From assembly GCA_031426555.1 (NCBI GenBank), contig JANPLN010000071.1:1-53907 (forward strand): a stretch of 53,907 nucleotides of DNA, in the 5' to 3' direction. Every line of letters starts with the position of its first letter. Position 1 is the first letter of the stretch. The translations under genes and the position numbers were made by a program. This document shows, piece by piece, positions 2,148 to 53,907 of the stretch. The notes beneath the pieces were generated by a model that worked only from the letters and a program-made list of their open reading frames with translations, ran no database searches and was not told the DNA's origin. Source of the DNA: Bdellovibrionales bacterium (lineage in GTDB: Bacteria > Bdellovibrionota > Bdellovibrionia > Bdellovibrionales > JAGQZY01).

Positions 2148-2615
2148 GTGAGCGGGTCAATGAAAGACGTCTTCGAAAAAATTAAAGCACTTCAGCAGCA
2201 AAACAAAAAAGTCGTTTTCACCAACGGCTGTTTTGATCTTTTACATGTGGGGCATGTGCGCTATTTGGCAGAAGCTAAAAAGCTGGGTGATTTTTTAATC
2301 GTCGGCATCAACTCGGACGAAAGCGTGAAGCGCCTGAAGGGCCCCACGCGTCCGATTCAGAATCAACAAGACCGTGCGGAAATTCTCAAAGCCCTCGAAG
2401 CGGTGGACGAAACCGTGATCTTCACCGAGGACACTCCAGAAAATTTAATCAAAAGCGTCCGCCCCGACATTCTCGTCAAAGGCGGCGACTGGAAGGTGGA
2501 CGACATCGTAGGCGGCCCCTTTGTGCAATCCTACGGCGGCCAAGTTTGCTCGCTCACATTCATCGACGGCAAGTCGACTACGAAGATTATCGAAAAGGCC
2601 GCGATCAAAAAATAA
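2148..2615 (+). CDS. rfaE2: D-glycero-beta-D-manno-heptose 1-phosphate adenylyltransferase
   Basis: VFTNGCFDLLHVGH, GINSDESV, PDILVKGGD and STTKII motifs. Start may be ATG at 2160. Confidence 0.9.
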   Translation: MSGSMKDVFEKIKALQQQNKKVVFTNGCFDLLHVGHVRYLAEAKKLGDFLIVGINSDESVKRLKGPTRPIQNQQDRAEILKALEAVDETVIFTEDTPENLIKSVRPDILVKGGDWKVDDIVGGPFVQSYGGQVCSLTFIDGKSTTKIIEKAAIKK

Positions 2616-2618
2616 CGG

Positions 2619-3104
2619 TTAGATGTCAACGGGCGCAGCGGTTCCGCCAGCGGCACCATCTTGGCTTTGCGGATTTGTGTTTTTCGGTACACAAAAGAAT
2701 TCGACAAGTACATGTTCATGGCCATAGGGATCTTTCTTCATTCTTTTAGTAGTTACTCCGCGATGACCGCTTCCTTTTTCGCATACAAAAGTCCCTTGGA
2801 TAGCTGATACGGGGGAGCAATTTTTCGATTTCACAGCGCACATCATAAGATTGGTTCCTGGCGCTACGGCACATGTCGTATTGGCTGCGGTGACTCCACA
2901 AAAAGCGGATGGGGTTTGGCCCAATGTTTTGTCTTCCGTTCCATCGTCCTTAAAAAAGCCTAATTTGTCGCGCTCTTTAAATTGTCTTATACAATCAGAC
3001 TCCTTCGTAAGCTCCAAACATTTAAAATTAAAATCTGCTTTTGCGGAAAGACCCGACAAAAACAGGCAAACGAAAATAAATAACCTTGGTTTAAAATTCT
3101 TCAT
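2619..3104 (-). CDS. Secreted Cys-rich hypothetical protein
   Basis: Signal peptide ending AKA; 8 Cys in the mature part; AAGGAG RBS. Confidence 0.7.
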   Translation of the reverse strand: MKNFKPRLFIFVCLFLSGLSAKADFNFKCLELTKESDCIRQFKERDKLGFFKDDGTEDKTLGQTPSAFCGVTAANTTCAVAPGTNLMMCAVKSKNCSPVSAIQGTFVCEKGSGHRGVTTKRMKKDPYGHEHVLVEFFCVPKNTNPQSQDGAAGGTAAPVDI

Positions 3105-3179
3105 GTGAACTCCTTTTTTCTAAGAGTATCTCATTCGTGCGATAAATGAAACTGCCCCCGACGCTCGTCTGTTGGTGGA

Positions 3180-3216
3180 GGTCCTTCGCTGCGCTTACGA
3201 TGGCTACGCCACTCAA
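3180..3216. repeat. Degenerate REP-like palindromic element
   Basis: Intergenic GC-rich segment with two mini-hairpins, on the - strand GC-GCA-GC (3188-3194) and TGGC-GTA-GCCA (3201-3211). Confidence 0.4.
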
Positions 3217-3226
3217 GATAGTGTCA

Positions 3227-5122
3227 TTAGAAGTAGTACTTGAAGTGGAGGCTGGCTTCGGTGAAGTCGTCCCAGGCTTCGAAGTCGGCCATGATGGCCA
3301 TATCGGCGCCTGTGAAATAGTACTGCGCTTGCAGGCGAGCTAAGAGTAGCTCGTGCCAGTTGGAGGTAAATTGGTAGTCGAAGAGATATTTTACATCCAG
3401 GGAAATTTTAAAATTATCGGCGAGTCGTGTGAGGGTGCCGACCACGGGTCCTGTGCGAAGGGCAAAATCGTGATTGAGGGAGGAGAGCTGATTGGCCTCG
3501 GAGTGGAGTAAAAAATAGGTAATGCTTTTTTGCTGCGTGAACGGTGTGTAAACCGAGAGGCCTGGTGCCAGAGCAAAAAATAGACTGCTGCTGCGACGGG
3601 ATTTTTTTTGTGCGAATGGCTGAAGGCCGGTGTTAAAGCGCCATGCCGGTTTCATGTCGATCTGATCCATGGGCGTGAGCACACCGATGCGAACCACATC
3701 CACTTTGTGGACGCGCGCACTCCACTGGTTATTATCTTTTTGAAAAATTCTGGCTTCCATATCTAGAAAGTTAATCTCGGATGAGAAATCAAAACCCTGA
3801 TGAGGATCAATCAAATCATGCATGGCCGGTTTCCAGCGCAAGCCCACAAAAGGATTGTCGTTGGCTTGGACCCCGCCACCAAGGCTCAACATACCCGATG
3901 GGTGAAATTTATGAGGTGGAATTTCGTTTTCGAAGTTCAGTACAGTGGGAGGATCTTTTGCTTGGCTTCGGCGAATCAGAAGAGGTCGTTTGAGATTGTC
4001 GAACTCGGTTTCGTTGCTACCTGCCAGCTTCGCGTTTTTGTAATCAAAATAGTCTAGCGCCGCATCGATTTGTTGGGTGCTGCTCAGAATGTTGAGTTGC
4101 TCTTTATCGATATTTTTACGCGCAAGAAGCTCCACTGAACTCTTAACAGTTTTGATTTCCTCGGAGGACAGCAGACTAAACCGTTTCGAAACCTTTTTTC
4201 TTAGCGATGGACGCAATTGATAATTCTCAACAAAAGCGTCCTGTTTGAACAACGCGCGAACAGTGTCTATGGGAATGGTGTGGGTTCTAGGGAGATGTTT
4301 AGTGAGCTGCAAGCGCGGGCTCGATGCTTCGAGGATCCGCAAGATCCAGTAGGAGCAGTTCTCGTCCAGGTAATAGTAGGGTGCCCATACATTTCCCAAC
4401 TCCCAAATATGATGGAGAAGAAGATTTTTTTCTTCGCTCGTCAAATTGAGCTGGTACGACCACAGATCGCGGGATTCAAAGTCGTTGTACTCGCGAACTT
4501 TGTAATAGTAAGGAACCGCAGTGAATTCGCCGTGGAAAAATCCGGCAAATCCCTTGATGGCGTAGAGAATGGCGTTGGACGTGTCTACGGTGGCGGCGAA
4601 GTTGATTCCATAATTTAAAAGATCGTCGTCGTTGGCTTTGCGGTTGATTTTTAAAAGCGTATGGCCAAAAGCCGACGAGGGATTGTGTAGATAATAGGAG
4701 GAGAACACTACGGACACTGAGTTGATGGCAGTGCGTTCGATAAACTCATTGAGCTTTAAACATGGAGCAAAGTTGGGTGATTGCCCAGGCGCTAGTTGCT
4801 CGTAAAGAAACAGCGTGCGAGCTGGAAAACGACAGAGCACATGATCGTTGTTTATCGGTGTCGCATGCAAAGCTTCGGAAAAAGATTTTAATTCCGCGGT
4901 GGAATCAGCCTTGATATTTTTGCTGACAAAAAAATCCGGTTTGATCACTTTGCTGCGCGAAGGTTTGTCGTAGTGTAGAAGACGGAGCCACTGCGGATGC
5001 TTAGCGAGATCGACAATCTGTTGTGTTGTGATTTCTAATTTGTTGGGATTTGGCTTTTGCGGAGCAGGTGTTTCGAGAGCGAAACTAAAAACGGAATGGA
5101 GAAAAAAAAAGAGGTAAGCCAT
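3227..5122 (-). CDS. DUF4105 (Lnb-like) periplasmic-domain protein with C-terminal beta-barrel-like region
   Basis: Signal peptide; W-x-x-LLHY, CRFPAR, SAFGHT and YYYLDENCS motifs; aromatic C-terminus (KYYF); follows a DUF3015-like gene. Confidence 0.8.
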   Translation of the reverse strand: MAYLFFFLHSVFSFALETPAPQKPNPNKLEITTQQIVDLAKHPQWLRLLHYDKPSRSKVIKPDFFVSKNIKADSTAELKSFSEALHATPINNDHVLCRFPARTLFLYEQLAPGQSPNFAPCLKLNEFIERTAINSVSVVFSSYYLHNPSSAFGHTLLKINRKANDDDLLNYGINFAATVDTSNAILYAIKGFAGFFHGEFTAVPYYYKVREYNDFESRDLWSYQLNLTSEEKNLLLHHIWELGNVWAPYYYLDENCSYWILRILEASSPRLQLTKHLPRTHTIPIDTVRALFKQDAFVENYQLRPSLRKKVSKRFSLLSSEEIKTVKSSVELLARKNIDKEQLNILSSTQQIDAALDYFDYKNAKLAGSNETEFDNLKRPLLIRRSQAKDPPTVLNFENEIPPHKFHPSGMLSLGGGVQANDNPFVGLRWKPAMHDLIDPHQGFDFSSEINFLDMEARIFQKDNNQWSARVHKVDVVRIGVLTPMDQIDMKPAWRFNTGLQPFAQKKSRRSSSLFFALAPGLSVYTPFTQQKSITYFLLHSEANQLSSLNHDFALRTGPVVGTLTRLADNFKISLDVKYLFDYQFTSNWHELLLARLQAQYYFTGADMAIMADFEAWDDFTEASLHFKYYF

Positions 5123-5145
5123 GGCTTACCTCTTTGGTTAACTTA

Positions 5146-5607
5146 TTAGATGTTAGCTTGGCAACTGTTTAGAGCAACAGCTTGCATTTTAAGAGCTAAT
5201 TTATCAGAAGATTCGTTTTCTGTGAAAATTTCTGAATACTGGCTTTGAAGAGCAGAAGCAAACGCAGGAGTTGCTTGGCAGTTATAGATACCAGCAAGAG
5301 CGTTGATTGTTTCGCCTTGGCCACGAGCTACGTCGTTAGAAATTTCTGTTTTGTTGGCTTCGATGAAAACTTTTGCTTTTTCCATTTGTCCAAATAGAGC
5401 GTTAGAATCGCACTCTAGGGAACCAGTTGTGATACCAAAAGTTTGGCTACCAAGAGTTCCGTTAGTAGTAGCAGCTAAAGTTTGAGCCCACCACTCGTTG
5501 TTGTTTTTGAAAACGAGAGCTCCGAATCCACAACCAGCCGCTTTGTAGCCTGCTGATGCGCTTAAAGAAAATAGAGCAAAGAATAAACCAATTACTAGAT
5601 GTTTCAT
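5146..5607 (-). CDS. DUF3015-family secreted protein
   Basis: Signal peptide; AGCGFG, ATTNGT, TFGITTGSLEC and DVARGQGE motifs. Confidence 0.85.
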   Translation of the reverse strand: MKHLVIGLFFALFSLSASAGYKAAGCGFGALVFKNNNEWWAQTLAATTNGTLGSQTFGITTGSLECDSNALFGQMEKAKVFIEANKTEISNDVARGQGETINALAGIYNCQATPAFASALQSQYSEIFTENESSDKLALKMQAVALNSCQANI

Positions 5608-5683
5608 AAATCTCCTTATTGTTGTTTTGGTTGAGAAATTAGTATTATTTGCTTTTAAACGTTTGTCGATAATAAAGATGTGA

Positions 5684-6412
5684 TTAAAAAGCGAAGCTCA
5701 CTTTTGCTGAATAAATAGGCTGAACATAGTGATCCACCGATAGAGTGGCATTCCAAAGGGTCCACTCGTAGGTCATTCCGAGGGCGCTGTGCAGCGCTTG
5801 CACCTCTTCAGTCTCTGCAACCAGCGAATCAGTGGTTCCATTGGTGCCGCCCACAAACTTGCCATAGGCCCCCGTCCAACCCAGCGAGGTAAAGATAGAA
5901 AACGCGTTTCGCTGGTAACCGATCATTAAATCCGCACCCAGGTTTCGACTGACCAGTTGGTTGTTAAAATTTGCACTGTTGGCATGCAACAGCGCCGTGG
6001 CGTAGAAATTTTTTGCTTCTGTCTGATAAAAGTTAAGGCGAAAAAGGCTGCCAAACTCCGAAAGCCCAAAGGTGGCCGTGTAAGGAATGAAATGAAAAAA
6101 CAAATCCATGCGATCGTAGATGCCTTTGCCAATGATGATTTTGGGATAATAAAGAATGCTTTTGGTTTGCTCATCATCGATTAAATTTTTAATGGGATTT
6201 GTGTCGATAAACTCAAAAGCAATTCCCACCTCGATGCCGCTATCTGTTCCCAGAGGGCGTAAGGTGGAGAGATTTTTACTGCTCGAACCGAGGCCAAGGA
6301 CTTTCAGCACTTCCACGCGGTTGTGGGAGTTGAGCCCAGAAGCTAGGTTAAACTCCGCATTGGAAAAATAAATCAGTAAATGAAATAACCACAGCGCCAT
6401 GGGTGCCATCAT
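5684..6412 (-). CDS. Putative outer-membrane beta-barrel protein
   Basis: Signal peptide, alternating hydrophobic strands, terminal Phe (KVSFAF). Confidence 0.6.
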   Translation of the reverse strand: MMAPMALWLFHLLIYFSNAEFNLASGLNSHNRVEVLKVLGLGSSSKNLSTLRPLGTDSGIEVGIAFEFIDTNPIKNLIDDEQTKSILYYPKIIIGKGIYDRMDLFFHFIPYTATFGLSEFGSLFRLNFYQTEAKNFYATALLHANSANFNNQLVSRNLGADLMIGYQRNAFSIFTSLGWTGAYGKFVGGTNGTTDSLVAETEEVQALHSALGMTYEWTLWNATLSVDHYVQPIYSAKVSFAF

Positions 6413-6445
6413 AGGCGGATCGCGGAAAGTTGTCTAGACAGATGA

Positions 6446-7567: not shown

Positions 7568-7579
7568 ACTTAAAGCTAT

Positions 7580-7595
7580 TGCATTCAGAGTGCCA
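7580..7595 (-). promoter_or_regulatory. sigma-54 -24/-12 promoter
   Basis: TGGCAC-TCTGA-ATGCA (GG-N10-GC) just upstream of the ATG at 7567. Confidence 0.65.
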
Positions 7596-7693
7596 ACATC
7601 AGAGGGGCAAATACCTTATTTTTAAAGAAAATAGAGGGGGATGGGAAAAAGCACTGTATTAATATTAGACAGCGAAGTGCCCAAATTGCGACA

Positions 7694-7708
7694 GTCTCAG
7701 AATGAGAC
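7694..7708. promoter_or_regulatory. Palindromic operator or enhancer GTCTCA-N3-TGAGAC
   Basis: GTCTCAGAATGAGAC about 100 bp upstream of the sigma-54 promoter; degenerate copy at 7656-7670. Confidence 0.5.
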
Positions 7709-7771
7709 GGTAGGTTTGGCAGCTCCGCTGCTGGTTGCTTCCGCAGTAGGTTGCCTGCTCCGCAGGGGCGA

Positions 7772-8914: not shown

Positions 8915-8944
8915 AAAAACGTCCCGGGTTAAGTCCGTAGTCTA

Positions 8945-8960
8945 AGCAGAGCGCGTGCCA
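8945..8960 (-). promoter_or_regulatory. sigma-54 promoter
   Basis: TGGCAC-GCGCT-CTGCT upstream of the serine hydrolase. Confidence 0.6.
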
Positions 8961-8989
8961 GTTGAATTCAAATGGATTAATCGCGAGGC

Positions 8990-18056: not shown

Positions 18057-19916
18057 GTGTGCGGAATAGTTGGTTATTTGGGTGAAAAAAGCACAGTTGA
18101 CGTTTTGATTAACGGCCTCAAAAAGCTAGAGTATCGCGGTTATGATAGCTCTGGTATTGCCGTGTTTGAAAAAAATGAATTTAAGGTGATGCGCGCCCAG
18201 GGAAAATTGGTGCAGTTAGAAGAGAAAATAAAAGGCAACAAACCAGTGGGTCCCATTGGGATTGCTCACACGCGTTGGGCCACCCACGGTGTGCCCTCCG
18301 AAAAAAATGCCCATCCGCACAAGGTGGACGGCGTATGCTTAGTGCATAACGGGATTATCGAAAATTATAGTGAATTAAAGCAAGAGCTCCTCGCACTCGG
18401 TGCAGAATTTAGCTCCGACACGGACAGCGAAGTGGTTGCCCACCTGATTGCGCGCGAACTTAAAAAAACACCGAAGCTTCGCCAGGCAGTCTATGAAGTT
18501 TTAAAAAAAATCCAAGGAGCCTACGCTATTTTAGTAGTGTGGGATCAACAGCCACAAACCATGGTGGCCTTTAAAAACGGCCCGCCGCTCATCGTTGGGA
18601 TGGGTCAGGGTGAAATGTTTGTGGGAAGTGACGTGCAGGCCATGCTTCAGTACACAAAATCTGTGGTCTATCTGGAAGACAACGAGGTCGCAGAAATGAC
18701 CGAGAAGGGCGTGCAGTTTTACGGCGCCCTAGGTGAGCTTGTGCAAAAGACCACTTCGCACATTGAATGGAGTTCTGCCCAAGCCGAGAAAATGGGTTTT
18801 AAGCACTACATGCTCAAAGAGATCTTCGAACAACCCAAATCGGTATCCTCTGTTTTAGAGCAGTATGTGGATCTCGCCACACTCTCGGTGAATTTTGATA
18901 AGATGAGCGAAGCTCCGCTAAAAACCGCCATTGAATCCTTACAGCCATCGGACTTAAAAGATTTGGATCGAATTTTCATTATCGCTTGTGGGACGAGTTT
19001 TTATGCTTCGATGTACGCGGAGTATTTGATCGAAAAACTGGCCGGAGTGCCTGTGGAAGTGGATGTGGCGTCGGAGTTTAGATACCGCGAGCCAGTGATT
19101 CCAGCAAATTCGTTAGTCATGGTGATCTCGCAGAGCGGAGAAACAGCAGATACGTTGGCAGTGTTACGAATGGCCAAAGAACGCGGAGCTAAAACCTTAA
19201 GTTTAACAAACACCAAAGGTTCTACGATTGATCGTGAAGCCCGGGGACACTTGTACATGCATGCCGGTGTGGAAATTGGCGTCGCCAGCACCAAGGCGTT
19301 TATTAGCACTCTTGCGGTGGTAAACCTATTGGCGATTTTTTTGGCTCGGTTGCGGGGCTCCATGACTCACGAGCAGGAACAAAGTTATGTGCAAAATCTA
19401 TTAGCTCTCCCAAGTCAAATGGAAGCGGTTTTATCCTACGACAAGTTTTTTGCGAAAGCTTCCAGCGTATTTAAGGCCTACCGTGGATTTTTGTATCTAG
19501 GGCGTGGAATCAATTACCCCATCGCCATGGAAGGAGCTCTAAAGCTGAAAGAGCTCGCTTACATGCATGCCGAAGGCTACGCCGCCGGTGAAATGAAACA
19601 CGGACCACTGGCTTTGATTGATTCTACAATGCTGGTTGTTGTGATTTGTCCCAAGGATGCCCACTACGAAAAAACGCTCAGCAATCTGCAAGAGGCAAAA
19701 GCTCGAGGCGGAGTGATTGTTTCCATTGGCACGGGCGAAGATAAGAATTTGAAAGAGATGAGCCGAGAATACTTATCGCTTCCCAAAAGCGACTGGATGG
19801 CTTCGGGAATCTTATCAGTGATTCCTGTGCAATTGCTGGCTTATCATGTGGCGAACATTATGGGCTATGATGTGGACCAACCACGGAACTTGGCTAAATC
19901 AGTGACGGTGGAATAA
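18057..19916 (+). CDS. glmS: Glutamine-fructose-6-phosphate aminotransferase
   Basis: Start reassigned to GTG at 18057 (MCGIVG, catalytic Cys1) after an AAGGAG RBS; LEYRGYDS, HTRWATHG, PRNLAKSVTVE. Confidence 0.97.
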   Translation: MCGIVGYLGEKSTVDVLINGLKKLEYRGYDSSGIAVFEKNEFKVMRAQGKLVQLEEKIKGNKPVGPIGIAHTRWATHGVPSEKNAHPHKVDGVCLVHNGIIENYSELKQELLALGAEFSSDTDSEVVAHLIARELKKTPKLRQAVYEVLKKIQGAYAILVVWDQQPQTMVAFKNGPPLIVGMGQGEMFVGSDVQAMLQYTKSVVYLEDNEVAEMTEKGVQFYGALGELVQKTTSHIEWSSAQAEKMGFKHYMLKEIFEQPKSVSSVLEQYVDLATLSVNFDKMSEAPLKTAIESLQPSDLKDLDRIFIIACGTSFYASMYAEYLIEKLAGVPVEVDVASEFRYREPVIPANSLVMVISQSGETADTLAVLRMAKERGAKTLSLTNTKGSTIDREARGHLYMHAGVEIGVASTKAFISTLAVVNLLAIFLARLRGSMTHEQEQSYVQNLLALPSQMEAVLSYDKFFAKASSVFKAYRGFLYLGRGINYPIAMEGALKLKELAYMHAEGYAAGEMKHGPLALIDSTMLVVVICPKDAHYEKTLSNLQEAKARGGVIVSIGTGEDKNLKEMSREYLSLPKSDWMASGILSVIPVQLLAYHVANIMGYDVDQPRNLAKSVTVE

Positions 19917-20107
19917 CTTTTTATTGTTCTGGTTGGTTTTTTTAGATTTCTTCAAATTTGTAAATACTCTCTTTTTAATACGCGGACTCCATGTCCTCGC
20001 TCGTTTCGGCTGCGCCGATCGCGTCACGCTAACGAGAGGTATTAAAAAGAGAGTATTTACAAATTTGAAGAAATCTAAAAAAACCACCCAGAACAATAAA
20101 AAGTTAT
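19913..20107. repeat. 195-bp palindromic element: 69-bp inverted arms around a 57-bp GC-rich branched core
   Basis: 19913-19981 is the reverse complement of 20039-20107 with one mismatch; lies between convergent genes. Confidence 0.95.
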
Positions 20108-20124
20108 CAACACAGTTAGTGTAT

Positions 20125-21138
20125 CTACTTTTTAAGTTTCTTTTTTGTTGGTTGGGTTTTGGGTGAAGATTTTGCAAAGGGTTTGGCCGTTTTTACTTCA
20201 ACCTTTTGGGTTGATTTGAGTTCGGTCTTTGATGCTGTTTTTAGCTCGAGTTTTGTTACCGCTTTTACTGGGTCTTTTGGGGTGCTTAGGAGTTTTTCTG
20301 TGGCGGTGCGGGCGGCTTTTTTGCGGGCTTCGATTTTTTTGATGGTTTTTACCTTTTCTGTTTCTTCTTTTGAAGCTATTACGGGGCGTTCGTAGATGTG
20401 GAAATGTTCTGTAAAGAGGTTGTTGGCGCGATTTACCGAATTGGAAATCCAGTGTTTAGTGGCCTGCGAAGACTGATAAGCCATGCCAGAGAATTCGTTG
20501 CCGCCAAAGAATGTCTGAATCATTTTTATTGCTTGTTTGTTGCTGCTTTTTATAAAACTCAAGGTAGTGCGTTTTGTTGACTGAGCTGTATTTTTCAAAA
20601 GTTTATGAAGATCTTTGAGTTCGAAAAATTCGGCAACAAGACCCGTCATCAATTTAAAAGCGAGTATTACAACAATGGATCCATAAATTCCGGCCACAGA
20701 GTAGAGGCCTTTGGCGATGAATGATCCGATCATTCCGCCGGCACCGTAAGGTAAACTTTCAGACACTGGAATTTCGAGAGCAAACTGAATAATAGATAAG
20801 AGATTTGCAAATAGCGTTAGTAAAATAAGATGGGCCAGGGCCGAGTAAGCTAAGATAGGGTATTCTCGTTTTAAATCGTTAAAGTTAAAGATGTGAAAGT
20901 TTGCGATGGAACCTAAGTGAAGTGCTGCGAAGGCGAGGTAAAAGAAACCGTAGCCGAAGGCGGAAAAGAATCCGCGATCGATAGAAGCACCAAAGGAACC
21001 AATCACCAACTCGAGACCTGAACTCCCAAGTGCGAGGTACGAAATGCCGCTGATGAACACCGAAAAGGCTAAGAGAAGACTCGAAAAAAATACGATCTCT
21101 TGAATTTGTCCTTCGATTTGATTTTTAAGTTTGTACAT
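20125..21138 (-). CDS. Stand-alone FtsK-4TM-like membrane protein with Lys-rich tail and no motor domain
   Basis: Several TM helices with IGSFGA and GAGGMIG motifs resembling the FtsK N-terminal domain; basic low-complexity C-terminus; no Walker A. Confidence 0.6.
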   Translation of the reverse strand: MYKLKNQIEGQIQEIVFFSSLLLAFSVFISGISYLALGSSGLELVIGSFGASIDRGFFSAFGYGFFYLAFAALHLGSIANFHIFNFNDLKREYPILAYSALAHLILLTLFANLLSIIQFALEIPVSESLPYGAGGMIGSFIAKGLYSVAGIYGSIVVILAFKLMTGLVAEFFELKDLHKLLKNTAQSTKRTTLSFIKSSNKQAIKMIQTFFGGNEFSGMAYQSSQATKHWISNSVNRANNLFTEHFHIYERPVIASKEETEKVKTIKKIEARKKAARTATEKLLSTPKDPVKAVTKLELKTASKTELKSTQKVEVKTAKPFAKSSPKTQPTKKKLKK

Positions 21139-38267: not shown

Positions 38268-39319
38268 GCCGCAAGCAAGTTGTTTTTATGGATCTTGGGC
38301 CCATTGGCCCGGCGTGCTCCTCGTTGCAAGTGGCCGAACTTTACGCCATGGCTACGGATCAGCTGGTCTACTTTGTAACGTCGATGGTCAACTTTAAAAG
38401 ACTGCCTGCGCGTGATCTCTTAAAATACGTCGCGATCGAAAACGTGGAAACACAGATTGATTATTTTACCGATTCTTTGGTTATCGATTTTACTCGTCCA
38501 GGACAGGGTGTTCATCAAACGGCACTGTTGTTTCAGGAGAGCTACAATTTCTATCTCCAGCAGGATCTGTCCTACTCGCACAATTCTTTTAGCGAAAAGG
38601 TAGAATACGTTGAATCGGTTTCGTTTGAGCTAGGACTCCTCAAACATTTAAAAATCACCACACAAACGCCTGTATTGACTTACTCGGCGGAGTACGCCGC
38701 CTTGCTCAACTTGCAAGGTATTCCCACCATCGAGCTCTGTTATCGTTTCAAACATCCGGGTTCATTTCTCCCTACAAGTGTGGTTGTTTTTGGCGACACT
38801 TTTAGCTTATTGCGAAAAGACGAAATCCAGCTCATTTTTGAATTTTATCAAAACGGAAAAATGGAAGATCTTTTCATGGGGAAAAATGTTCTCGAGGTGG
38901 ATTGGGACGTCCTTTACTTTAAGATGGATAAATCCCGGGGCTCCATTGTTCCACTAAAGCATCCTGTGAGCACAACCGAGGCTTTCCTGGATCATTTTTT
39001 AAAATCATTTTTAACGCAACCGTCGATGCGGATATTTTCCATCGATTCCGCGCTTGAGAGTGCGATGAAACTGGATGTTATAGACCTTGAAATGACGTTA
39101 GAATTCTTACGCAAGGTCTTAAGCCGCTGCATGGTGGACTTGGATAAAAAGCAGTATCCGCTCACCCAATCGCACTGGAATTGGGTTCGGCCCTATGCGG
39201 ACTGTTACTCCAAAAATAAAGTTTCGGAATTGAGGCAATCTCTCAACCAGGCGTTGCTAGGTCTAGATTTGTTCCTCAGCGTTCAGGAGCGACAGAAAAA
39301 AGTCATCGGCATGCATTGA
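38264..39319 (+). CDS. Hypothetical protein, possibly a divergent glycosyltransferase-like protein
   Basis: Coupled to the TPR gene (ATGA overlap); N-terminal 'VFMDLGPIGPACSS' loosely resembles a GT9 N-terminus. Confidence 0.5.
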   Translation: MSRKQVVFMDLGPIGPACSSLQVAELYAMATDQLVYFVTSMVNFKRLPARDLLKYVAIENVETQIDYFTDSLVIDFTRPGQGVHQTALLFQESYNFYLQQDLSYSHNSFSEKVEYVESVSFELGLLKHLKITTQTPVLTYSAEYAALLNLQGIPTIELCYRFKHPGSFLPTSVVVFGDTFSLLRKDEIQLIFEFYQNGKMEDLFMGKNVLEVDWDVLYFKMDKSRGSIVPLKHPVSTTEAFLDHFLKSFLTQPSMRIFSIDSALESAMKLDVIDLEMTLEFLRKVLSRCMVDLDKKQYPLTQSHWNWVRPYADCYSKNKVSELRQSLNQALLGLDLFLSVQERQKKVIGMH

Positions 39320-39360
39320 GGTTTTGCGCTGGGTCGCGGGCTCTGTCATAATAAGGGGGC

Positions 39361-42273: not shown

Positions 42274-43473
42274 ATGACAACACCGTCCACTTCTTTGCTA
42301 TCGCAAAAAGCTAAAAACTTTCAACCCTCTCCCACGTTGATGTTGGCTGCCAAAGCCAAGGAAATGAAAGACCGCGGCGAAGATGTGCTTTCCCTCACTG
42401 TGGGCGAACCCGATTGGCAAACCTATCCCAAAGCCTCCGAAGCTGGCATCCAAGCCATTCGCGATGGAAAAACAAAGTACACAGCCTCTCAAGGGATTCC
42501 AGCATTGCGCAAAGCCATCGCTCAGCAAATGAAAAACCTCACGGGTCAGGAATACAATCCCGCAAACGAAGTGGCCGTTACCTCCGGCGCGAAGTTCGTG
42601 GTGTTCTCCGCTTTCATCGCCTTATTAGACCCGCAGGAAGAAGTGATCATCCCCGCGCCCTTCTGGGCAAGTTATAGCGAAATGGTGGAGCTGGCTGGCG
42701 GAGTTCCCAATATTGTTAAGACAAAATTCGAAAATGGTCTTAAGATCATACCAGCCGAGCTCGAAAAAGCCATCAACGCAAAAACAAAAATCTTTCTTTT
42801 AACCTCACCAAGCAATCCAACCGGCGTTGAATACACAGCTGACGATTTGAAAGCGTTGGCAGACGTGCTTCGCAAATATCCAAAAGTGGCCATTGTGTCT
42901 GACGACATCTACAACCAACTTTCATTTTCGGACAGCGGAACAAGCCCGCATCTTTTGCATGTGGCTCCAGATCTTCGCGATCGCGTGGTGTGTGTTAACG
43001 GTGCTTCAAAAGCGTACTCCATGACCGGCTGGCGCATGGGTTGGGCCGCTGGCGAAAAATCCATCATTCACGCGATGATCAGCTACCAAAGCCAAACCAT
43101 GGGTGCCCCAAACTCCATGGCCCAAGAGGCGGCGCTCGCGGGAATCCTTCACTGCGATGCAGACCTTGTAGAAACCCGCAAAGTTCTGAAAGAGCGCTGC
43201 GCCCACGCCTACGAAGCGTTTTCCAGCATTCCCGGCATGAAGATCGCAAAACCCGACGGTGCTTTTTACCTGTGGATCGACGTCTCTGTGATTCTCAAAA
43301 AACTCGGCCTCAAAACCGGCAAAGAGTTTTCGCAAATGTTGCTAGAAAAACAAAAAGTAGTTTTAGTCCCCGGCGACGACTTCGGCGACGACCAATGCAT
43401 CCGCATCAGCTTCGTAACAGACCGCAAAACAATCGACGGCGCCGTGGCACGCATCAAAACTGCAATTTCTTAA
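42274..43473 (+). CDS. aspC: Class I PLP-dependent aminotransferase (aspartate aminotransferase-like)
   Basis: VGEPD, SPSNPTG, SDDIY, SKAYSMTGWRMG motifs. Confidence 0.85.
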   Translation: MTTPSTSLLSQKAKNFQPSPTLMLAAKAKEMKDRGEDVLSLTVGEPDWQTYPKASEAGIQAIRDGKTKYTASQGIPALRKAIAQQMKNLTGQEYNPANEVAVTSGAKFVVFSAFIALLDPQEEVIIPAPFWASYSEMVELAGGVPNIVKTKFENGLKIIPAELEKAINAKTKIFLLTSPSNPTGVEYTADDLKALADVLRKYPKVAIVSDDIYNQLSFSDSGTSPHLLHVAPDLRDRVVCVNGASKAYSMTGWRMGWAAGEKSIIHAMISYQSQTMGAPNSMAQEAALAGILHCDADLVETRKVLKERCAHAYEAFSSIPGMKIAKPDGAFYLWIDVSVILKKLGLKTGKEFSQMLLEKQKVVLVPGDDFGDDQCIRISFVTDRKTIDGAVARIKTAIS

Positions 43474-43474
43474 C

Positions 43475-43591
43475 GCGCTTCGAAGATCGCCTAACTCTTC
43501 GTTGCTCGGTCGCCTCGTTCGATCGCTGTACAGGAAGTACAGCTCCTCACTCCGCTCGGTCGCGCCTCGATTTAAGCAATCTTCGAAGCGC
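43475..43591. repeat. 117-bp palindromic MITE/REP-like element
   Basis: 20-bp inverted arms (18/20 match; 43475-43494 and 43572-43591), central hairpin GCTGTAC-AGGAA-GTACAGC (43525-43543), internal direct repeat GCTCGGTCGC (43504, 43554). Confidence 0.8.
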
Positions 43592-43760
43592 TCTTGGGGT
43601 TCTCGGCCCTCATTTAAAACTTAAGTGACTTTAACGTAAGAAATATACTTCTCTGATTCCGCGTTAGTCAGCTCAAAGTGATGAATATTTAACGCGGGTT
43701 TACTACCGTAGCGGAAGTGATCAAACTTTTCAGTTCTTTGTTTCGAATGAATCAGGCCCG

Positions 43761-44243
43761 CTAAAAATATTCAGGGGTTTCTGAAGGGACTTTGAAGTCT
43801 TCGATAGTTTTTCCGCGCACCATGCAGGTTGTGAGTGGTGCGCGCTGAGCGGATTTTGGAATTTGTTGAAATCCGAAGCGCTCGTAGAATGTCGGATCGA
43901 TGTCAGAATACAGAAAGATGACTGCGTCGGGTGATTCTTGTTCAATGTGATCGAGAATCTCAGAAACAAGCTTTGAAGCGTAACCTTGTCTTCGTAGCGG
44001 CAGTGGAGTTGCGATGGAGCCGATTCCGTAGTGGCCGTAAGTCAACTCGTAGACGATAAGAGAGCTAGCCAAGTCGCCATCGTCGGCCTCGAGCACATAC
44101 CAAACTCCACGCGCATACTTTGCGGATGTACGACAGGTCTCGAGATACTTTTCCAGAGAACCTTCTCCCCAAACGTCGAAGCCCATTTGAAATATCGAAT
44201 TAAAATCGTTTGGCCCGGCTGTTCTAAGGCTTACGTTTTTCAT
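43761..44243 (-). CDS. GNAT-family N-acetyltransferase
   Basis: IGSIAT...RRQGYASKL acetyl-CoA motif; FYERFGF. Confidence 0.88.
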   Translation of the reverse strand: MKNVSLRTAGPNDFNSIFQMGFDVWGEGSLEKYLETCRTSAKYARGVWYVLEADDGDLASSLIVYELTYGHYGIGSIATPLPLRRQGYASKLVSEILDHIEQESPDAVIFLYSDIDPTFYERFGFQQIPKSAQRAPLTTCMVRGKTIEDFKVPSETPEYF

Positions 44244-44318
44244 TTTTAGTATATAACACCCTCCCAGGCCAAAGCCTAGTCCTGTTGTGAGTCTAGCGAA
44301 TCGCGCATAACATAATAA

Positions 44319-45065
44319 GTGATGACCATATTAGGTATAGTGCAGGTCGCATTTAATATTCTTTTCTTCGCGGGAATCGCTCTTTGCTTCATTAAGTTGA
44401 AGGGGCGTCGTGAGGAAGATCCTCGCCTCAGTTACGGTCTTAAGCTCTTGCAAAACAAAATCGCGGTGCTTGAAGATCTTTCTGATAAGACGGAGCTTCA
44501 GGTAAAGCAGTTGGTGATCTTGCTGGAGTCTAAAATGCGCGATCTTCAGCACAAAGTGACTGCCGCTGATACGCAAATGGCGCGCATCGATCACTCGATG
44601 AACAAAACCATGGAAGTGGCGCACATCTTTCAGGACCAAGTTCCCCACGAACAAATCATGGAACGTAAAACCACCAATAAGTATATCAATGCGGCCCGCA
44701 TGGCCCATCAGGGGTTGTCGTTTCAGGATATTCAGCAGCAAGTGGATCTTCCGCATGCCGAGCTGGATTTGATCGTAAAGCTGAACCGTGAGCAGCTGAT
44801 GTTTTCGGAAGATCATTTACCGGCTTGGGTCGATAAAAATACAGCCGGCAAGAACACAACCGACAAGAACACAGCCGGCAAGCATCCGGTGGAGACCAAT
44901 CAGAACATTTTTGTTCCTCCGCAGGTAGACATCGCTTCCTTGGAAAAGCTCGGGCAGGAATTTAAACAGGCTTGCAAGGACTTTGAACAAAAAATCAAAC
45001 CTGCAGCAAAAGCCGAACCCGAAGTTGTTCCCTATCAGTTTAAGAAGATGAACGAGCACTACTAG
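44319..45065 (+). CDS. Membrane-anchored coiled-coil protein, DUF2802-like
   Basis: N-terminal TM helix, coiled coil, 'YINAARMAHQG...LPHAELDLI' HTH-like motif. Confidence 0.7.
   Translation: MMTILGIVQVAFNILFFAGIALCFIKLKGRREEDPRLSYGLKLLQNKIAVLEDLSDKTELQVKQLVILLESKMRDLQHKVTAADTQMARIDHSMNKTMEVAHIFQDQVPHEQIMERKTTNKYINAARMAHQGLSFQDIQQQVDLPHAELDLIVKLNREQLMFSEDHLPAWVDKNTAGKNTTDKNTAGKHPVETNQNIFVPPQVDIASLEKLGQEFKQACKDFEQKIKPAAKAEPEVVPYQFKKMNEHY
44832..44882 (+). repeat. In-frame 15-bp tandem repeat (about 3.4 copies)
   Basis: GATAAAAATACAGCC GGCAAGAACACAACC GACAAGAACACAGCC GGCAAG, encoding DKNTA-GKNTT-DKNTA-GK. Confidence 0.8.
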
Positions 45066-45904: not shown

Positions 45905-45911
45905 ACGGTTT

Positions 45912-49387: not shown

Positions 49388-49428
49388 AATTTAATTAGAC
49401 GCATTTTTACGAGCGAAATCAAACTCTC

Positions 49429-49458
49429 TTGACAAGAAAGAGAAAAATTCAGGACAAT
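49429..49458 (+). promoter_or_regulatory. sigma-70-type promoter of the pal operon
   Basis: TTGACA-N18-GACAAT. Confidence 0.5.
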
Positions 49459-49491
49459 ACAAATGGAATTATCTAATACGAGGAGGAAATC

Positions 49492-50007
49492 ATGATTCGT
49501 AATACTCTAATGTTCGCATGCGCACTTTTACTTGTGATCGGTTGTTCGAGCAAAAAGAAGGCCGAAGAAACCACAGACTTAACAGGTGCAGCCACTGATG
49601 GCGCGACACTGAACGAGGCTGATATTCAAAATCGTGAGATGTCTCTCGACCCTTGTGGAAGCGATTGCGGAGCCATCCCCGGTTTAAAAACTGTGAATTT
49701 TGCCTACGACAGCTCAACTTTAACAGAGGAAGCCAAGGCGGTTCTTGCTGGAAATGCAGAGTGGCTTAAAACTAACAGCACAGGTATTCAAATCGAAGGC
49801 CATTGCGATGCAAAAGGCTCCGACGAATACAACCGTTCTCTAGGGGCTCGTCGCGCCGAAGTTGTAAAGTCGTATCTAAAAGGTTTAGGCGTCGATACTG
49901 CGCGTTTGAATACCATCAGCTGGGGCGAAGAAAAGCTATTGGCTCTTGGTGATGGCGATGGTGACAATGCAAAAAATCGTCGCGCTAACTTCGCACCAAC
50001 GAAATAA
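49492..50007 (+). CDS. pal: Peptidoglycan-associated lipoprotein (OmpA-like domain)
   Basis: Lipobox VIGC; VNFAYDS, IEGHCD, YNRSLGARRA, SWGEE, NRRA motifs. Confidence 0.92.
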   Translation: MIRNTLMFACALLLVIGCSSKKKAEETTDLTGAATDGATLNEADIQNREMSLDPCGSDCGAIPGLKTVNFAYDSSTLTEEAKAVLAGNAEWLKTNSTGIQIEGHCDAKGSDEYNRSLGARRAEVVKSYLKGLGVDTARLNTISWGEEKLLALGDGDGDNAKNRRANFAPTK

Positions 50008-50336
50008 TGGGCCCCAAGAGCGTGCTGAAAGCTCGTTGGCTTGGTTTCCCTTTCGTCATTCTTATTTTGTCCTCTTGCGTAACGGTTTCTATACCTGTGC
50101 AAGAGTACTCTTTGGCCAAGGCGGCTTACGAAGCCGCTGTCACCGCAGAATCAGCAAAATATGCTCCGCAGCTATTCTATAAGGCCGAAAAAGCGTATAA
50201 AAGAGGCGAACAGTTGTATAAGGAAAGAGACTTTGAAGGAGCTCGGGTTCAGTTTGTGAGTTCACAAAAATTATCCGAGAAAGCCGAGGATGAGTCTCGC
50301 GTAAAACAATTTAATTCGGGAGAAGAAGGTGGCTAG
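50007..50336 (+). CDS. Helical lipoprotein, DUF4398-like
   Basis: Lipobox LSSC; 'A..A..AA....A.KYAP' pattern. Confidence 0.65.
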   Translation: MGPKSVLKARWLGFPFVILILSSCVTVSIPVQEYSLAKAAYEAAVTAESAKYAPQLFYKAEKAYKRGEQLYKERDFEGARVQFVSSQKLSEKAEDESRVKQFNSGEEGG

Positions 50337-50988
50337 CCTTAAAGTTTTGTTCTTTGTAGTGATGCTTTTTACAGCAGGTTGTTTACAAACACGCTCCAAT
50401 CTGCGCGGTCAAACACCATCCACGCCCGGCGTGAAACCCACTGTAACTCCCCAGCAACAAAAAGCCGCGGAAGAAGCTGTGCAAAAAGAAGACGCCAATA
50501 AAGAATTTCGCGAGCTTTACGGACGCATTGAAAATGTCGAAAAACAACTCGGCGATACAAAAAGCAATGAGCCCGTGAAGGCACTCGAAATGAAAATTGC
50601 GCAAATGGAAACGGAACTCACGCTGTTGCGAACCACGGTTTCTGAGCTCAATGCCAAAGCGAAAAAAGACGCTTTGTTGATTTCGAGTGACGAGCGGGCT
50701 GGCAACCACCCTCAAAATCATCCCAAAGCGCATTTCAAAAGCCCTTTGTCCGACGCCACTCAGCACTTTGACAACAAAAAATGGGAAGACGCCATTTTGG
50801 CCTTCGAAGAGTATCGCAAGCACAATCCAAAAGGCGCGGAATATCCAGAAGCCACTCTAAAAATCGGCATGTGTTTTCAAAATATGAGCCTTAAGGACGA
50901 TGCAAAAGTTTTTTACAAAGAAGTTGTGGAAAAATTTCCGAAATCCAAGGAAGCCTCGGTCGCCAAGTCCAAACTTAAAAAGCTGTAG
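50329..50988 (+). CDS. cpoB: TPR lipoprotein, CpoB/YbgF-like
   Basis: Lipobox TAGC, coiled coil, C-terminal TPRs ending 'KFPKSKEA'; in the pal operon. Confidence 0.7.
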   Translation: MASLKVLFFVVMLFTAGCLQTRSNLRGQTPSTPGVKPTVTPQQQKAAEEAVQKEDANKEFRELYGRIENVEKQLGDTKSNEPVKALEMKIAQMETELTLLRTTVSELNAKAKKDALLISSDERAGNHPQNHPKAHFKSPLSDATQHFDNKKWEDAILAFEEYRKHNPKGAEYPEATLKIGMCFQNMSLKDDAKVFYKEVVEKFPKSKEASVAKSKLKKL

Positions 50989-51000
50989 TGTAAGGTCTGC

Positions 51001-52032
51001 ATGGACACACACACTTCTTTTACTCTCGCCATCGAAACGAGCTGCGACGACACATCCGTGGCTCTGGTTAATGATAATGGTTTTGTTCTATCGCAAATGA
51101 CAGCCAATCAAGATCTCGTCCACAAAGACTTCGGTGGCGTGGTTCCAGAAATCGCTGGACGGCAACACTACGAATCGCTTGTGCCGCTGATCGATCAACT
51201 TTTAATTAAAAACCACATCCCTTGGAGTGCTGTCAGTGGAATTGCCGTGACCAGTCGACCCGGTTTGGTGGGGTCGTTGATCGTTGGTTTAGTGACGGCA
51301 AAAACCTTGGCGCTGGTTCACAAAAAACCATTTATGGGTGTGCATCACATCGAAGGGCATATTCTGTCTGCTTTTCTCAACGAACAATCCCCCGAGACCA
51401 ATCAAATATGGCAAGACGCCTTTGTCGCTTTGGTTGTGAGCGGTGGGCACACGCAGCTTTATCATGTTTCGCAAATCGGGAAGTATGAAACCCTCGGCCA
51501 AACTCAAGACGATGCCGCTGGCGAGGCCTTCGATAAATTTGCAAAAATGTTAGGTCTTGGTTACCCAGGTGGCGTTCTGGTGGATCGCTATGCACAAAAA
51601 GGAAATCCAAAGGCTTATGAATTTCCGCGCAGTCTGATGAAAGAGGATCACTACAACTTTAGTTTTTCGGGCCTCAAGTCCCACGCTCAACGAAAGTTGG
51701 CTGAGATCGGCGAAGTGGCGCCGGTGCTTGAGGATCTTTCAGCCTCCTACCAAGAGGCCATCGTGGATGTGCTGATGTACAAACTCGAAAAAGCCCTGCG
51801 CAGTTTAAAACTTAAAAAATTTGTCATCACCGGTGGCGTAAGCGCCAACAGTCGCTTGCGCGAACAGGCACAGGAGTTAGCGAGCAAAAATAAATGGGAA
51901 GTAATGATACCACCATTAAAGTTTTGCACCGACAACGCCGCGATGATTGGCCTTGCTGGCGCTTTGCGATTAAAAAACGGGGAGTCTTCTCCTCAAACCC
52001 TGGGGCCCGCGCCGAGAGAAGAGTTGCGATGA
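51001..52032 (+). CDS. tsaD: tRNA t6A threonylcarbamoyltransferase
   Basis: IETSCDDT, GGVVPE, HHIEGH, VSGGHT, DDAAGEAFDK, TDNAAMI motifs. Confidence 0.96.
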   Translation: MDTHTSFTLAIETSCDDTSVALVNDNGFVLSQMTANQDLVHKDFGGVVPEIAGRQHYESLVPLIDQLLIKNHIPWSAVSGIAVTSRPGLVGSLIVGLVTAKTLALVHKKPFMGVHHIEGHILSAFLNEQSPETNQIWQDAFVALVVSGGHTQLYHVSQIGKYETLGQTQDDAAGEAFDKFAKMLGLGYPGGVLVDRYAQKGNPKAYEFPRSLMKEDHYNFSFSGLKSHAQRKLAEIGEVAPVLEDLSASYQEAIVDVLMYKLEKALRSLKLKKFVITGGVSANSRLREQAQELASKNKWEVMIPPLKFCTDNAAMIGLAGALRLKNGESSPQTLGPAPREELR

Positions 52033-52847
52033 CATCGTTGTATGGGGGCGAAATCAAACGCGTGAAAGATTTGTTAGAACTCATGGGCCGAGGGGCAAAA
52101 AAATCCCTCGGGCAAAATTTTTTAGTCAATTCGCAGAAAATCGATTTAATTATCAAAGAGCTGCAGTTTAATAAAATGCACAAGCTTCTCGAAGTGGGCC
52201 CGGGTTTAGGGGCGCTGACTTTACGTTTGAAGGATATTGATCCCGAGGTGTTGCTTGTAGAGATGGATCACCAATTTGCCGAGTATTGGAAAAGCCAAGG
52301 TTTCAATGTGGTGATCGAGGATGCTCTTAAGCTTGATTGGACGCAGCTAAAATTGAACAACACAACCCTGATTAGCAACCTGCCTTACCAGATCGCCGCC
52401 CGCTTGGTGATCGACCGCAGTGTGGACCCAGCGGGTTTATCCAACATGATTTTGATGTTTCAAAAAGAAGTGGCGCAACGACTCACCGGGAAACCCCGCA
52501 CCGAGCACTATAGCTTATTGTCGGTGGTGGCGCAGAGCTTTTGGAAAATGGAAAATTTAACGGATCTCGGTCCCAATGATTATTTTCCACCGCCCAAGGT
52601 GGCAAGTCGCGTGGTGATCTTCCGCAGGTTGGAAGCGACGTTCACGCAAAAACCGCAGGCTTACTTAAACTTTGTAAAGTTAAGTTTTTCGCAAAAGCGC
52701 AAGTTCCTTAAAAAGGCCCTTTCCACCAAATACGGTGAGGAAGCGGTTCTTAAGAACTTCGAACTGCTAAAGATATCGCCCAAAGCGCGTCCCGAAGAGC
52801 TCGACGTTTTGACATTTCAGCGCTTGTATCAGATGTTAGAGCCATGA
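52029..52847 (+). CDS. rsmA: 16S rRNA adenine dimethyltransferase KsgA
   Basis: Start ATG 52029 overlapping the tsaD stop; KSLGQNFL, EVGPGLG, SNLPYQI, MFQKEVA motifs. Confidence 0.95.
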   Translation: MTSLYGGEIKRVKDLLELMGRGAKKSLGQNFLVNSQKIDLIIKELQFNKMHKLLEVGPGLGALTLRLKDIDPEVLLVEMDHQFAEYWKSQGFNVVIEDALKLDWTQLKLNNTTLISNLPYQIAARLVIDRSVDPAGLSNMILMFQKEVAQRLTGKPRTEHYSLLSVVAQSFWKMENLTDLGPNDYFPPPKVASRVVIFRRLEATFTQKPQAYLNFVKLSFSQKRKFLKKALSTKYGEEAVLKNFELLKISPKARPEELDVLTFQRLYQMLEP

Positions 52848-53290
52848 AATTAGTGGCCGACAATAAAAAAGCCAGGTTCGACTTCGAGATCCTCGAGACC
52901 TACGAGGCCGGCGTGGTTTTGCGCGGGAGCGAAGTCAAATCCATTCGCAACGGTAGCGTCAACTTAAAGGACTCCTATGTTTCTTTTATCGGCGACGAAG
53001 CGTTTTTGCAAAATGCCCATATCAGCGTTTACCAGGCCAGCAGTTACAATAATCACGAGCCCGAGCGTTTACGCAAACTTTTACTCAACCGAAACGAGCT
53101 CAATAAAATTATCGCAAAAACCCGCGAACGGGGTTTGAGCTGTATTCCGTTAAAAATTTATTTTAAAGACGGTCGGATTAAACTTGAGATCGCCCTCTGC
53201 AAAGGCAAAAAGAGCCACGACAAACGCGATGCCATCAAAAAGCGCGATGTGGACCGCGAAACGCAAAACGCCATGAAGAAGGGACGATAG
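52844..53290 (+). CDS. smpB: SsrA-binding protein
   Basis: NKKARFDF, EAGVVLRGSEVKS, RKLLL, GKKSHDKR motifs. Confidence 0.97.
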   Translation: MKLVADNKKARFDFEILETYEAGVVLRGSEVKSIRNGSVNLKDSYVSFIGDEAFLQNAHISVYQASSYNNHEPERLRKLLLNRNELNKIIAKTRERGLSCIPLKIYFKDGRIKLEIALCKGKKSHDKRDAIKKRDVDRETQNAMKKGR

Positions 53291-53291
53291 C

Positions 53292-53864
53292 ATGTGGATG
53301 CTGTTATTAATCCTTACCGTTTTCGCCCAGGAGTCCGCCTCGACTCAAACTGCTGCACAAGCTCCGTCTTACGAGCAGGAGATTGCGCAGAAAAACAAAG
53401 TCACTGCCGAAACGAAAGCCCAGGATCAAAAATCCTTTTTCGATGAGATCAACGCAAAAACGCAAGAGGTGCTCCGTTACGCGCGCACCACAAAAACCGA
53501 ACTTGTTAAAAAACAAGAAGCGGTTCGCAAAGATTTCGAAGCCAGGCTCAAAGCCGAGGTGGAGCACGCGAAAAAACAAGATCCCAAAGCCAGCGTAGAG
53601 CCGCTTCGCAAAGCGGCCAACGAAAAACGCCGAGCCCTTTTCGAACAACTTAACAGCGAAAAAAAATCCCTAGAAAAAAACTTGGAAGATTTCAGAAGCC
53701 GCTTCAACGGCTTCGTAAAAACCCAAAGACAATCCTTCGGTGAACAATTAAAAACCCTTTCCGTAAGAGCCAACAACGTTAAAAAAGCCATCACCGAAAG
53801 CCCCATCCAGCAAGAGTTCCGCGACATCCCCCCCGGCCCCGCCACCCCCCTAAAACCCCAATAA
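53292..53864 (+). CDS. Secreted coiled-coil hypothetical protein
   Basis: Short signal peptide followed by a charged helical region. Confidence 0.65.
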   Translation: MWMLLLILTVFAQESASTQTAAQAPSYEQEIAQKNKVTAETKAQDQKSFFDEINAKTQEVLRYARTTKTELVKKQEAVRKDFEARLKAEVEHAKKQDPKASVEPLRKAANEKRRALFEQLNSEKKSLEKNLEDFRSRFNGFVKTQRQSFGEQLKTLSVRANNVKKAITESPIQQEFRDIPPGPATPLKPQ

Positions 53865-53907
53865 AAAAAACAGCAATAAAAAAGGTACGCCGTTCCGCTT
53901 GCGGTAC

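Follow-up and report, generated by a model that had tools for sequence, protein, structure and literature searches.

The stretch analysed here (the window) is the whole 53,907-nucleotide contig JANPLN010000071.1 (C71) of the Bdellovibrionales bacterium assembly GCA_031426555.1 (G000), a genome of 3.14 Mb in 72 contigs. Dispersed palindromic repeats in this genome are surrounded by a compositional halo. On either side of an element, the strand that runs 5′ to 3′ into it (the inward strand) is C-rich at synonymous codon positions, and the effect extends about 150–300 bases per side. Comparison with related genomes showed that the halo is a shift in the direction of substitution and not in its rate. 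Four of the repeat families each bracket their own Y1 transposase gene, and we tentatively propose that the halo records local turnover of one DNA strand after nicking of the repeats by such enzymes of the HUH/Y1 type.

A compositional halo centred on dispersed repeats

The 3009 genes of G000 were called with our own dicodon model, and a repeat catalogue was built from an inverted-repeat scan, over-represented intergenic words and motif matching. Families A, B and D came from these scans; C, E/I and F were in part spotted behind high-scoring genes, which tilts the catalogue toward a positive result; families A and B taken alone gave halo z values of +11.5 and +10.3. Over 115 merged element loci, the left-to-right switch in the C/A content of the + strand was +0.112 and the decay length was 149 ± 17 bp. 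Its z value (+23.4), like the others given here, assumes that codons are independent and overstates the significance; at the level of loci, the switch was positive at 100 of the 113 that could be scored.

At the 150 gene 3′ ends located beside elements, the shift was +0.163 in the last 20 codons (z +18.3) and fell bin by bin to +0.112, +0.072 and +0.043 at up to 90 codons, while at the 2663 3′ ends without an element it was −0.001. The 57 gene 5′ ends beside elements shifted the opposite way (first two bins: z −3.1 and −5.8). Fifty-five of 2761 genes had an excess of C/A at their 3′ end above z 3, and the corresponding mid-gene windows gave 6. An earlier reading of the window, made from its sequence only, had proposed an element-centred, strand-specific switch independent of gene direction, to be checked by averaging the skew over element copies and comparing it with gene ends that lack them. 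The averages bore this out, as a strong switch was found at elements and none at the gene ends without them.

Several other explanations for the excess at gene ends were discarded. Most of the element-adjacent 3′ ends (102 of 150) are convergent, but the 156 convergent 3′ ends with gaps of at least 80 nt and no element showed no C excess. There was no halo at 91 terminator-like hairpins (z +0.3) and no switch across 1121 element-free gaps (mean z −0.06), the four strongest of which proved to hold uncatalogued elements. A general bias of 3′ ends or terminators is ruled out by these ends, hairpins and gaps. High expression is also ruled out as the cause, since the effect is confined to gene ends and is reversed at 5′ ends. 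An assembly artefact is unlikely because the halo recurs in three congeners (G001, G002 and G003), and the contigs from sequencing run X1, which may be the source of the assembly, equal the window without differences. The other sequencing runs contain a relative that is about 89% identical, not strains of the same species.

The halo follows the element, not transcription or replication

The shift was similar for genes transcribed toward and away from the element. In successive bins between 50 and 300 bp, the values toward/away were +0.62/+0.53, +0.45/+0.38, +0.25/+0.29 and +0.19/+0.27; below 50 bp, where there are few outward sites, they were +0.74/+0.44. When leading and lagging strands were assigned from the GC skew of the contigs, the shift was +0.62 where the inward strand is leading and +0.61 where it is lagging. 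The halo is thus alike for either direction of transcription or replication, which argues against Rho or selection at the mRNA level as its origin. Copies of families A and B present in a single orientation have a halo on both sides, about twice as strong 5′ of the motif.

With a context-matched baseline, the log-odds shifts on the inward strand were +0.83 for C vs T, +0.65 for C vs G, +0.49 for C vs A, +0.28 for A vs T, +0.22 for A vs G and −0.08 for T vs G. The C/A enrichment described from the sequence was therefore correct in direction, although the gain is mainly of C. The C vs T shift depended little on neighbouring bases, at +1.00 after T, +0.75 after C and +0.78–0.79 after purines; an apparent effect of the following base was mostly gone once the baseline was matched for context. 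The spectrum is dominated by transitions; by arithmetic, a strong A>G together with a weaker C>T on the outward strand accounts for these shifts. As a separate observation, the inward strand is poor in G where the next base is C or G (A vs G +0.33 and +0.40) and hardly so where it is A or T (+0.08 and +0.01).

A likeness to the switch at replication origins had also been suggested. The sign of the GC skew is indeed the same, with the strand that leaves the centre being G-rich, but the spectrum differs. The lagging-minus-leading contrast of G000 was +0.12 for C vs T, +0.28 for C vs G, +0.18 for T vs G and −0.04 for A vs T, so that C vs T, which dominates the halo, is small at the replication level, and T vs G is near zero only in the halo. 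Besides, the halo reaches about 150 bp instead of a replichore, and its size is about six times that of the lagging-minus-leading C/A log-odds contrast.

The halo is a shift in the direction of substitution

Portions of the congeners G001 (0.30 Mb, 89% identical), G003 (0.62 Mb, 87%) and G002 (0.56 Mb, 78%), drawn mainly from around elements, were aligned to G000. Where the aligned genomes have an element in common, the synonymous divergence of its halos did not exceed that of control gene ends (0.190 vs 0.220 for G001 and 0.253 vs 0.262 for G003). At two-fold pyrimidine sites (603 sites in 63 genes), the rate of T>C on the inward strand was 1.81 times that of control 3′ ends (1.48–2.17) and the rate of C>T was 0.66 times (0.56–0.78). 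At the 547 two-fold purine sites, G>A was raised 1.54 times (1.21–1.88) and A>G was 0.95 times the control (0.76–1.21). The total substitution rate in halos was 0.88–1.23 times that of the controls. The localised mutagenesis proposed from the sequence is not supported as an ongoing increase in rate.

Three one-parameter models were compared over 100 gene bootstraps. At pyrimidine sites, a two-way bias was preferred in 70, a decaying scar in 25 and a pure gain in 5; at purine sites, the pure gain was preferred in 55 and the scar in 31. The gain-only model was worse than the two-way bias by 6.8, 14.5 and 11.4 log-likelihood (lnL) units on the three C axes, the first two being C/T. Parsimony counts agreed in direction with the likelihood fits, but they are biased by composition. 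A first fit that suggested a clear decay depended on treating G002 as a star branch and on the choice of elements in G000; three-taxon and rooted refits did not reject stationarity. A table of element presence and absence was set aside as too noisy, with several sites scored as empty carrying other or decayed families. Shared elements had a halo of +0.13. Elements found only in G002 had +0.055, against +0.086 for shared ones, and the matching empty sites +0.025; numbers here are small and absence calls uncertain.

Repeat families and Y1 transposase genes

The trans-acting factor postulated from the sequence has a plausible candidate elsewhere in the genome. Twelve Y1_Tnp matches were found in G000, and two of these genes are flanked by repeat families: an intact gene on contig C44, bracketed by family A in G000–G003, and a truncated one on C37, bracketed by families B and F. 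The latter (L002, C37:14835–15400) lacks about 60 N-terminal codons in G000 and is full length in G001 and G002, where family B also brackets its own Y1 gene. Family C does so in G001 and a fourth family in G002. For E/I and for families D and H, whose elements have long arms, no cognate transposase gene was found. The protein encoded on C44 has the motifs HFH (HuH) and YVYRNP (Y---NP, the class 2 signature). It aligned weakly with the E. coli TnpA-REP structure 4ER8 (E 0.019), and the Y1 proteins scored 51.4 and 73.5 bits against the NCBIfam model REP_Tyr_transpos, below its 80-bit cut-off.

The proposed search for HUH transposases, reverse transcriptases and deaminases thus succeeded for the first of these. 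The completeness of G000 is rated at 100%, and it had no RVT_1 match. The four deaminase matches, read by eye, resemble TadA, dCMP deaminase, cytidine deaminase and RibD and look like housekeeping enzymes. The MutS family, uracil glycosylase families and Rho are encoded in G000.

A second, short (about 165 aa) Y1-family gene occurs in nine copies on contigs C25, C20, C66, C72, C7, C9 and C69 (L001, L004–L010), each preceded by a conserved element of about 250 nt and without flanking inverted repeats; two copies are broken, and a tenth, divergent copy is on C18. The nine multi-copy loci showed no halo (z +0.8; 6 scorable).

The repeats are also dispersed. Intergenic motif matches in G000 were 41 for family A and 29 for family B, and there were 90, 38 and 61 matches in G002, G003 and G001, respectively. 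Direct inspection showed that the family repeat ends begin AAGGT[AG]C and that the foot of the hairpins lacks GT[AG]G, with GGTAC inside the stem instead; the GGGGWSAS motif was not seen at repeat ends by eye, no formal motif search having been made. Of the 71 A/B/C motifs, 39 begin no more than 12 nt past a stop codon. Twenty-nine begin within 3 nt of one on the same strand, often having letters in common with it, and this suggests a stop-codon-like insertion target.

In alignments of 9–11 elements, both arms had changed in 40 and 30 columns, and only one arm in 30 and 39. Arms that change together on both sides are expected if the DNA there is re-copied. In a group made up of the window's element at 19913–20107 and 44 similar ones, the left arm is T-rich (41% T over 42 arms), pairing mismatches amount to 3%, and paired changes occur between species.

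Distribution of the halo in other genomes

The halo of genes running into elements was seen in G001, G002 and G003. Genes pointing away from elements showed the signal in G001 and G003. Y1 loci from the relatives had a readable Y1 frame in 27 of 29 cases. In 10 genomes from other genera, the 17 genes that point toward repeats flanking a Y1 gene contained 275 C against 187 expected (z +7.4; higher in 14 of the 17), while five genes next to Y1 genes of the "other" class, which have no flanking repeats, had 59 C against 58 expected; kin genomes in these counts are not independent of each other. In a 500-kb portion of E. coli K-12, the 52 repetitive extragenic palindrome (REP) loci had no such halo (C/A −0.12). 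The E. coli REPs (L290–L299) showed a weak reversed shift (within 100 bp, A vs G −0.37 and z −5.2), which may be an effect of gene class.

Elements and halos in the window

The hand counts that led to this analysis were reproduced exactly. Codons ending in C or A make up 30 of the final 34 codons of aspC before the element at 43475 (0.60 in the rest of the gene), 25 of the final 27 codons of the last open reading frame (ORF; 0.66 in its remainder) and 18 of the final 20 codons of the − strand gene at 3227–5122 (631 aa; 0.53 in its remainder). The terminal Phe, Tyr and Asp codons of this last gene are all TTC, TAC or GAC, as had been stated (9/9), while 36 of 92 end in C elsewhere in it. Segment values given below are z scores of the + strand C/A shift relative to genome-wide codon-box expectations.

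The halo of the 631-aa gene covers 3227–3600 on the − strand (z −4.1 for 3227–3330, then −2.9). Next to it, a relative of family E/I occupies 3160–3215 (edges approximate), with a motif match at 3180–3195 and 17-nt exact matches at three other loci. It had been read as a palindrome; a repeat is present, but it is weakly palindromic (fold about −10 kcal/mol).

A long-arm hairpin element is located at 19913–20107, with 69-bp inverted arms (19913–19981 and 20039–20107) around a 57-nt core common to five other loci; its arms are not alike in G000, G003 and G002. The tail of the 337-aa gene to its right is shifted, in agreement with the sequence-only reading (20125–20325, z −4.5), and its halo covers 20125–20600 on the − strand (z +4.1 and +3.2 in the scan over merged element loci). 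The end of glmS on the other side has none (z −1.1, and −1.0 in that scan), again as had been reported. The element may act from its right end only. By eye, 20108–20124 resembles a possible decayed family-C end, which might be the centre of this one-sided halo.

The halo at the end of aspC covers 43000–43473 on the + strand (z +5.0 for the aspC end; +5.1 and +2.5 in the scan over element loci). The adjoining hairpin element, 43475–43591, has 20-bp arms and a 77-nt core and starts 1 nt past the aspC stop codon; it is kept in G001–G003, and a related element is found at the same site in G005. In G001 and G003 the aspC halo is strong, whereas G002 has a weak one. On the right, a halo extends over 43761–44520, comprising the 3′ end of a − strand gene (43761–43960, z −2.9) and, weakly, the 5′ end of the gene at 44319 (44322–44520, z −2.3); the G/T enrichment previously attributed to the latter is in the right direction but weak. 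A short repeated motif, family G, at 43702–43718 has 18 intergenic matches and no clear halo of its own.

At the end of the window, the halo of the final ORF (53560–53864, + strand, z +6.1) precedes a family-A repeat at 53878–53907, cut by the contig end and continuing in contig C65 (71-base overlap). Three of the window's four elements fall in families D/H or E/I, those for which no cognate gene was found.

A further C/A-rich patch lies in the 3′ half of rfaE2 (2380–2615, + strand). The shift had been assigned to the halos; the patch is real (z +3.7) but adjoins no element and is not contiguous with the repeat at 3180, and the ORF in between is not shifted (z −1.5 and +0.6). The patch may be what remains of a halo whose element was lost or displaced. 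The ORF next to it, 2619–3104, has a poor gene score and no NCBIfam match. Elsewhere in the window, a repeat element found directly past the stop codon at 39319 in runs X6 and X8 and in G001 is missing from 39319–39340; the C fraction at this site is 0.45 in G001 and 0.38 in the window.

A proposed origin of the halo and its alternatives

The reading that we favour, although with somewhat less than even confidence, is that the halo records local one-strand turnover of DNA after nicking of the repeats by a HUH/Y1 transposase. HUH cleavage leaves a 3′-OH on one side and a protein linked through a 5′-phosphotyrosine on the other, according to the parts of PMC8266576 consulted. In the consulted parts of PMC3333891, the cleavage sites of E. 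coli TnpA-REP are described as spreading more than 400 nt on both sides of a bacterial interspersed mosaic element (BIME), and priming from the 3′-OH or its degradation is proposed. In our scheme, the Y1 transposase would nick the repeat in vivo, and a nick within the palindrome would leave a free 3′ end on the inward strand at either side. This end, present on the inward strand only, would be chewed back and refilled on the opposite strand as template, with mismatches settled in favour of the outward strand. Such turnover would erase C>T damage on the inward strand and make permanent the A>G and C>T changes that arise on the outward strand while it is exposed. With inward damage erased and outward damage fixed, the signs would come out as observed and the net rate would not rise. 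From established chemistry, double-strand resection, transcription bubbles and transcription-coupled repair would be expected to produce the opposite sign.

A number of results weigh against this proposal. The signal of outward genes was absent in G002 (z ≤ 1.3) and in three genes of distant genera (z +0.4), and the E. coli REPs have no halo although TnpA-REP cuts them in vitro. Orthologous empty sites had a shift of +0.025 (z +2.2, 19 genome-sites), and mixed cases of +0.066. The two-way bias fit is mathematically identical to weak selection, and the scar model was only 1.4–4.1 lnL units worse on the C axes, about equal on the G/A axis and preferred in a quarter of the pyrimidine-site bootstraps. 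The fall in C>T requires frequent turnover, yet halos are also seen at family B, the transposase of which is N-terminally truncated in G000, and at families D, E/I and H, for which no cognate gene was found.

The halo could instead be a scar. In rare past events of insertion, excision or nicking, the outward strand would have become single-stranded and been deaminated, leaving patches of fixed A>G and C>T changes; the halo would since have been decaying at ordinary rates. We consider this unlikely. In its favour, its lnL was close to that of the bias at two-fold pyrimidine sites (−750.3 vs −748.9) and equal or slightly better at G/A sites, free-root fits placed the ancestor above equilibrium (0.73 vs 0.60 C), and aspC of G004 keeps a strong halo beside an apparently decayed repeat. 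The scar model was, however, 4.1 and 3.4 lnL units behind the bias on four-fold C/T and G/C, stationarity was not rejected with three taxa (likelihood-ratio statistic 2dL of 1.2 for pyrimidine sites and 4.1 for four-fold sites), the dispersion between loci was not raised (1.31–1.37 vs 1.22–1.36), and the halos of G002-only elements are smaller than those of shared ones.

Polymerases arriving from either side could also be halted by the hairpin or by a bound protein, with the stalled nascent inward strand degraded and refilled in the absence of any nick. This produces the same two-sided geometry for either direction of replication and accommodates the families without an intact transposase, and BIME-dependent polymerase stalls in vitro are mentioned in PMC3333891. 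Nonetheless, terminator-like hairpins and the E. coli REP/BIME clusters show no halo, and the strongest halos surround families A and B, whose hairpins are short; stalling therefore seems rather improbable.

Selection for a C-rich, G-poor tract upstream of a hairpin, favouring for example Rho loading or unstructured RNA, fits the pattern of rates, the presence of Rho, the prevalence of convergent ends and the closeness of A/B/C motifs to stop codons. One E. coli REP is a partly Rho-dependent terminator, as far as the consulted portion of 10.64898/2026.03.23.713779 goes. Against it, the halo has a similar size when the C-rich strand is antisense, the 3′ ends without elements have no C excess, the E. 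coli REPs have no halo, and there is no clear preference for C after a pyrimidine. We regard selection as improbable.

Insertion of the repeats next to sequence that is already skewed agrees with the small shift at empty and mixed sites and is very unlikely, as element-free gaps are null, shared elements reach +0.13, and a centred, mirror-symmetric exponential decay would be hard to pre-select. Steady local hypermutation by deamination of single-stranded DNA, which fits the direction of the composition and the purine-site bootstraps, is hardly tenable given the unraised total rate, the clear loss of the gain-only model on all three C axes and the lack of a reverse transcriptase or unusual deaminase in G000; on the C/T axis it is largely refuted, although strong heterogeneity of rates between sites could still hide it.

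Relation to known systems and significance

The elements are of a known kind, and several of the families are of the TIRtron type. A TIRtron, or TIRYT element, consists of a Y1 gene bracketed by inverted repeats unrelated to GTAG REPs, the repeats being also dispersed as singles, dimers and groups (Di Nocera et al. 2013, PMC3733652, in part). The present families likewise bracket Y1 genes and form dispersed families, and the protein carries the HuH and Y---NP motifs; they differ in that their repeats begin AAGGT[AG]C in place of the GGGGWSAS motif of some terminal inverted repeats, and in that long arm-plus-core elements exist too. The part of PMC3733652 consulted mentions no flanking compositional effect. 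With REPs, BIMEs, REPINs and TnpA-REP, the REP-associated tyrosine transposase (RAYT), the elements share the intergenic palindromes near stop codons, often located between convergent genes, and the family-specific HUH/Y1 enzymes (PMC3333891, PMC8266576 and PMC6006769, each in part). In contrast, they lack the GT[AG]G foot, their proteins score below the RAYT cut-off, and the REPs of E. coli have no halo. Unlike the tract of a Rho-dependent terminator, the C-rich tract is not limited to the transcribed strand, with the reservation made for the outward genes of G002. Diversity-generating retroelements and retrons differ in requiring a reverse transcriptase gene, for which G000 gave no match.

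Resected double-strand breaks, such as those of meiotic hotspots, leave a mirror-symmetric strand bias that decays from the cut site. Resection from 5′ to 3′ would, by established chemistry, strip C from the inward strand, which here gains it. In the literature searched, judged from titles and the openings of abstracts and covering journals outside subscription, no such halo was described, and the word "skew" is absent from the main text of PMC8266576 and PMC6006769. A strand-polarised substitution domain around these elements, found order-wide, thus appears to be undescribed.

The cutting and spread of REP-type repeats in vivo is a long-standing open question, activity having been shown mainly in vitro, and the null result in E. 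coli together with the order-wide positive one makes a clear comparative contrast. Should the halo record nicking and repair, sequence alone would show, for any genome, which repeat families have been processed, on which strand and how far out from the element. The halo also means that a nearby repeat shapes codon choice over the last 50–100 codons in about 150 of 2800 genes, a confounder for studies of codon selection and of Rho sites. It is conceivable, if doubtful, that each copy in a widespread class of transposase-target repeats acts as a fixed point of strand discrimination where the inward strand is routinely removed and re-made, and that hundreds of genes would then have the direction of their substitutions set by a resident HUH enzyme and not by replication or transcription.

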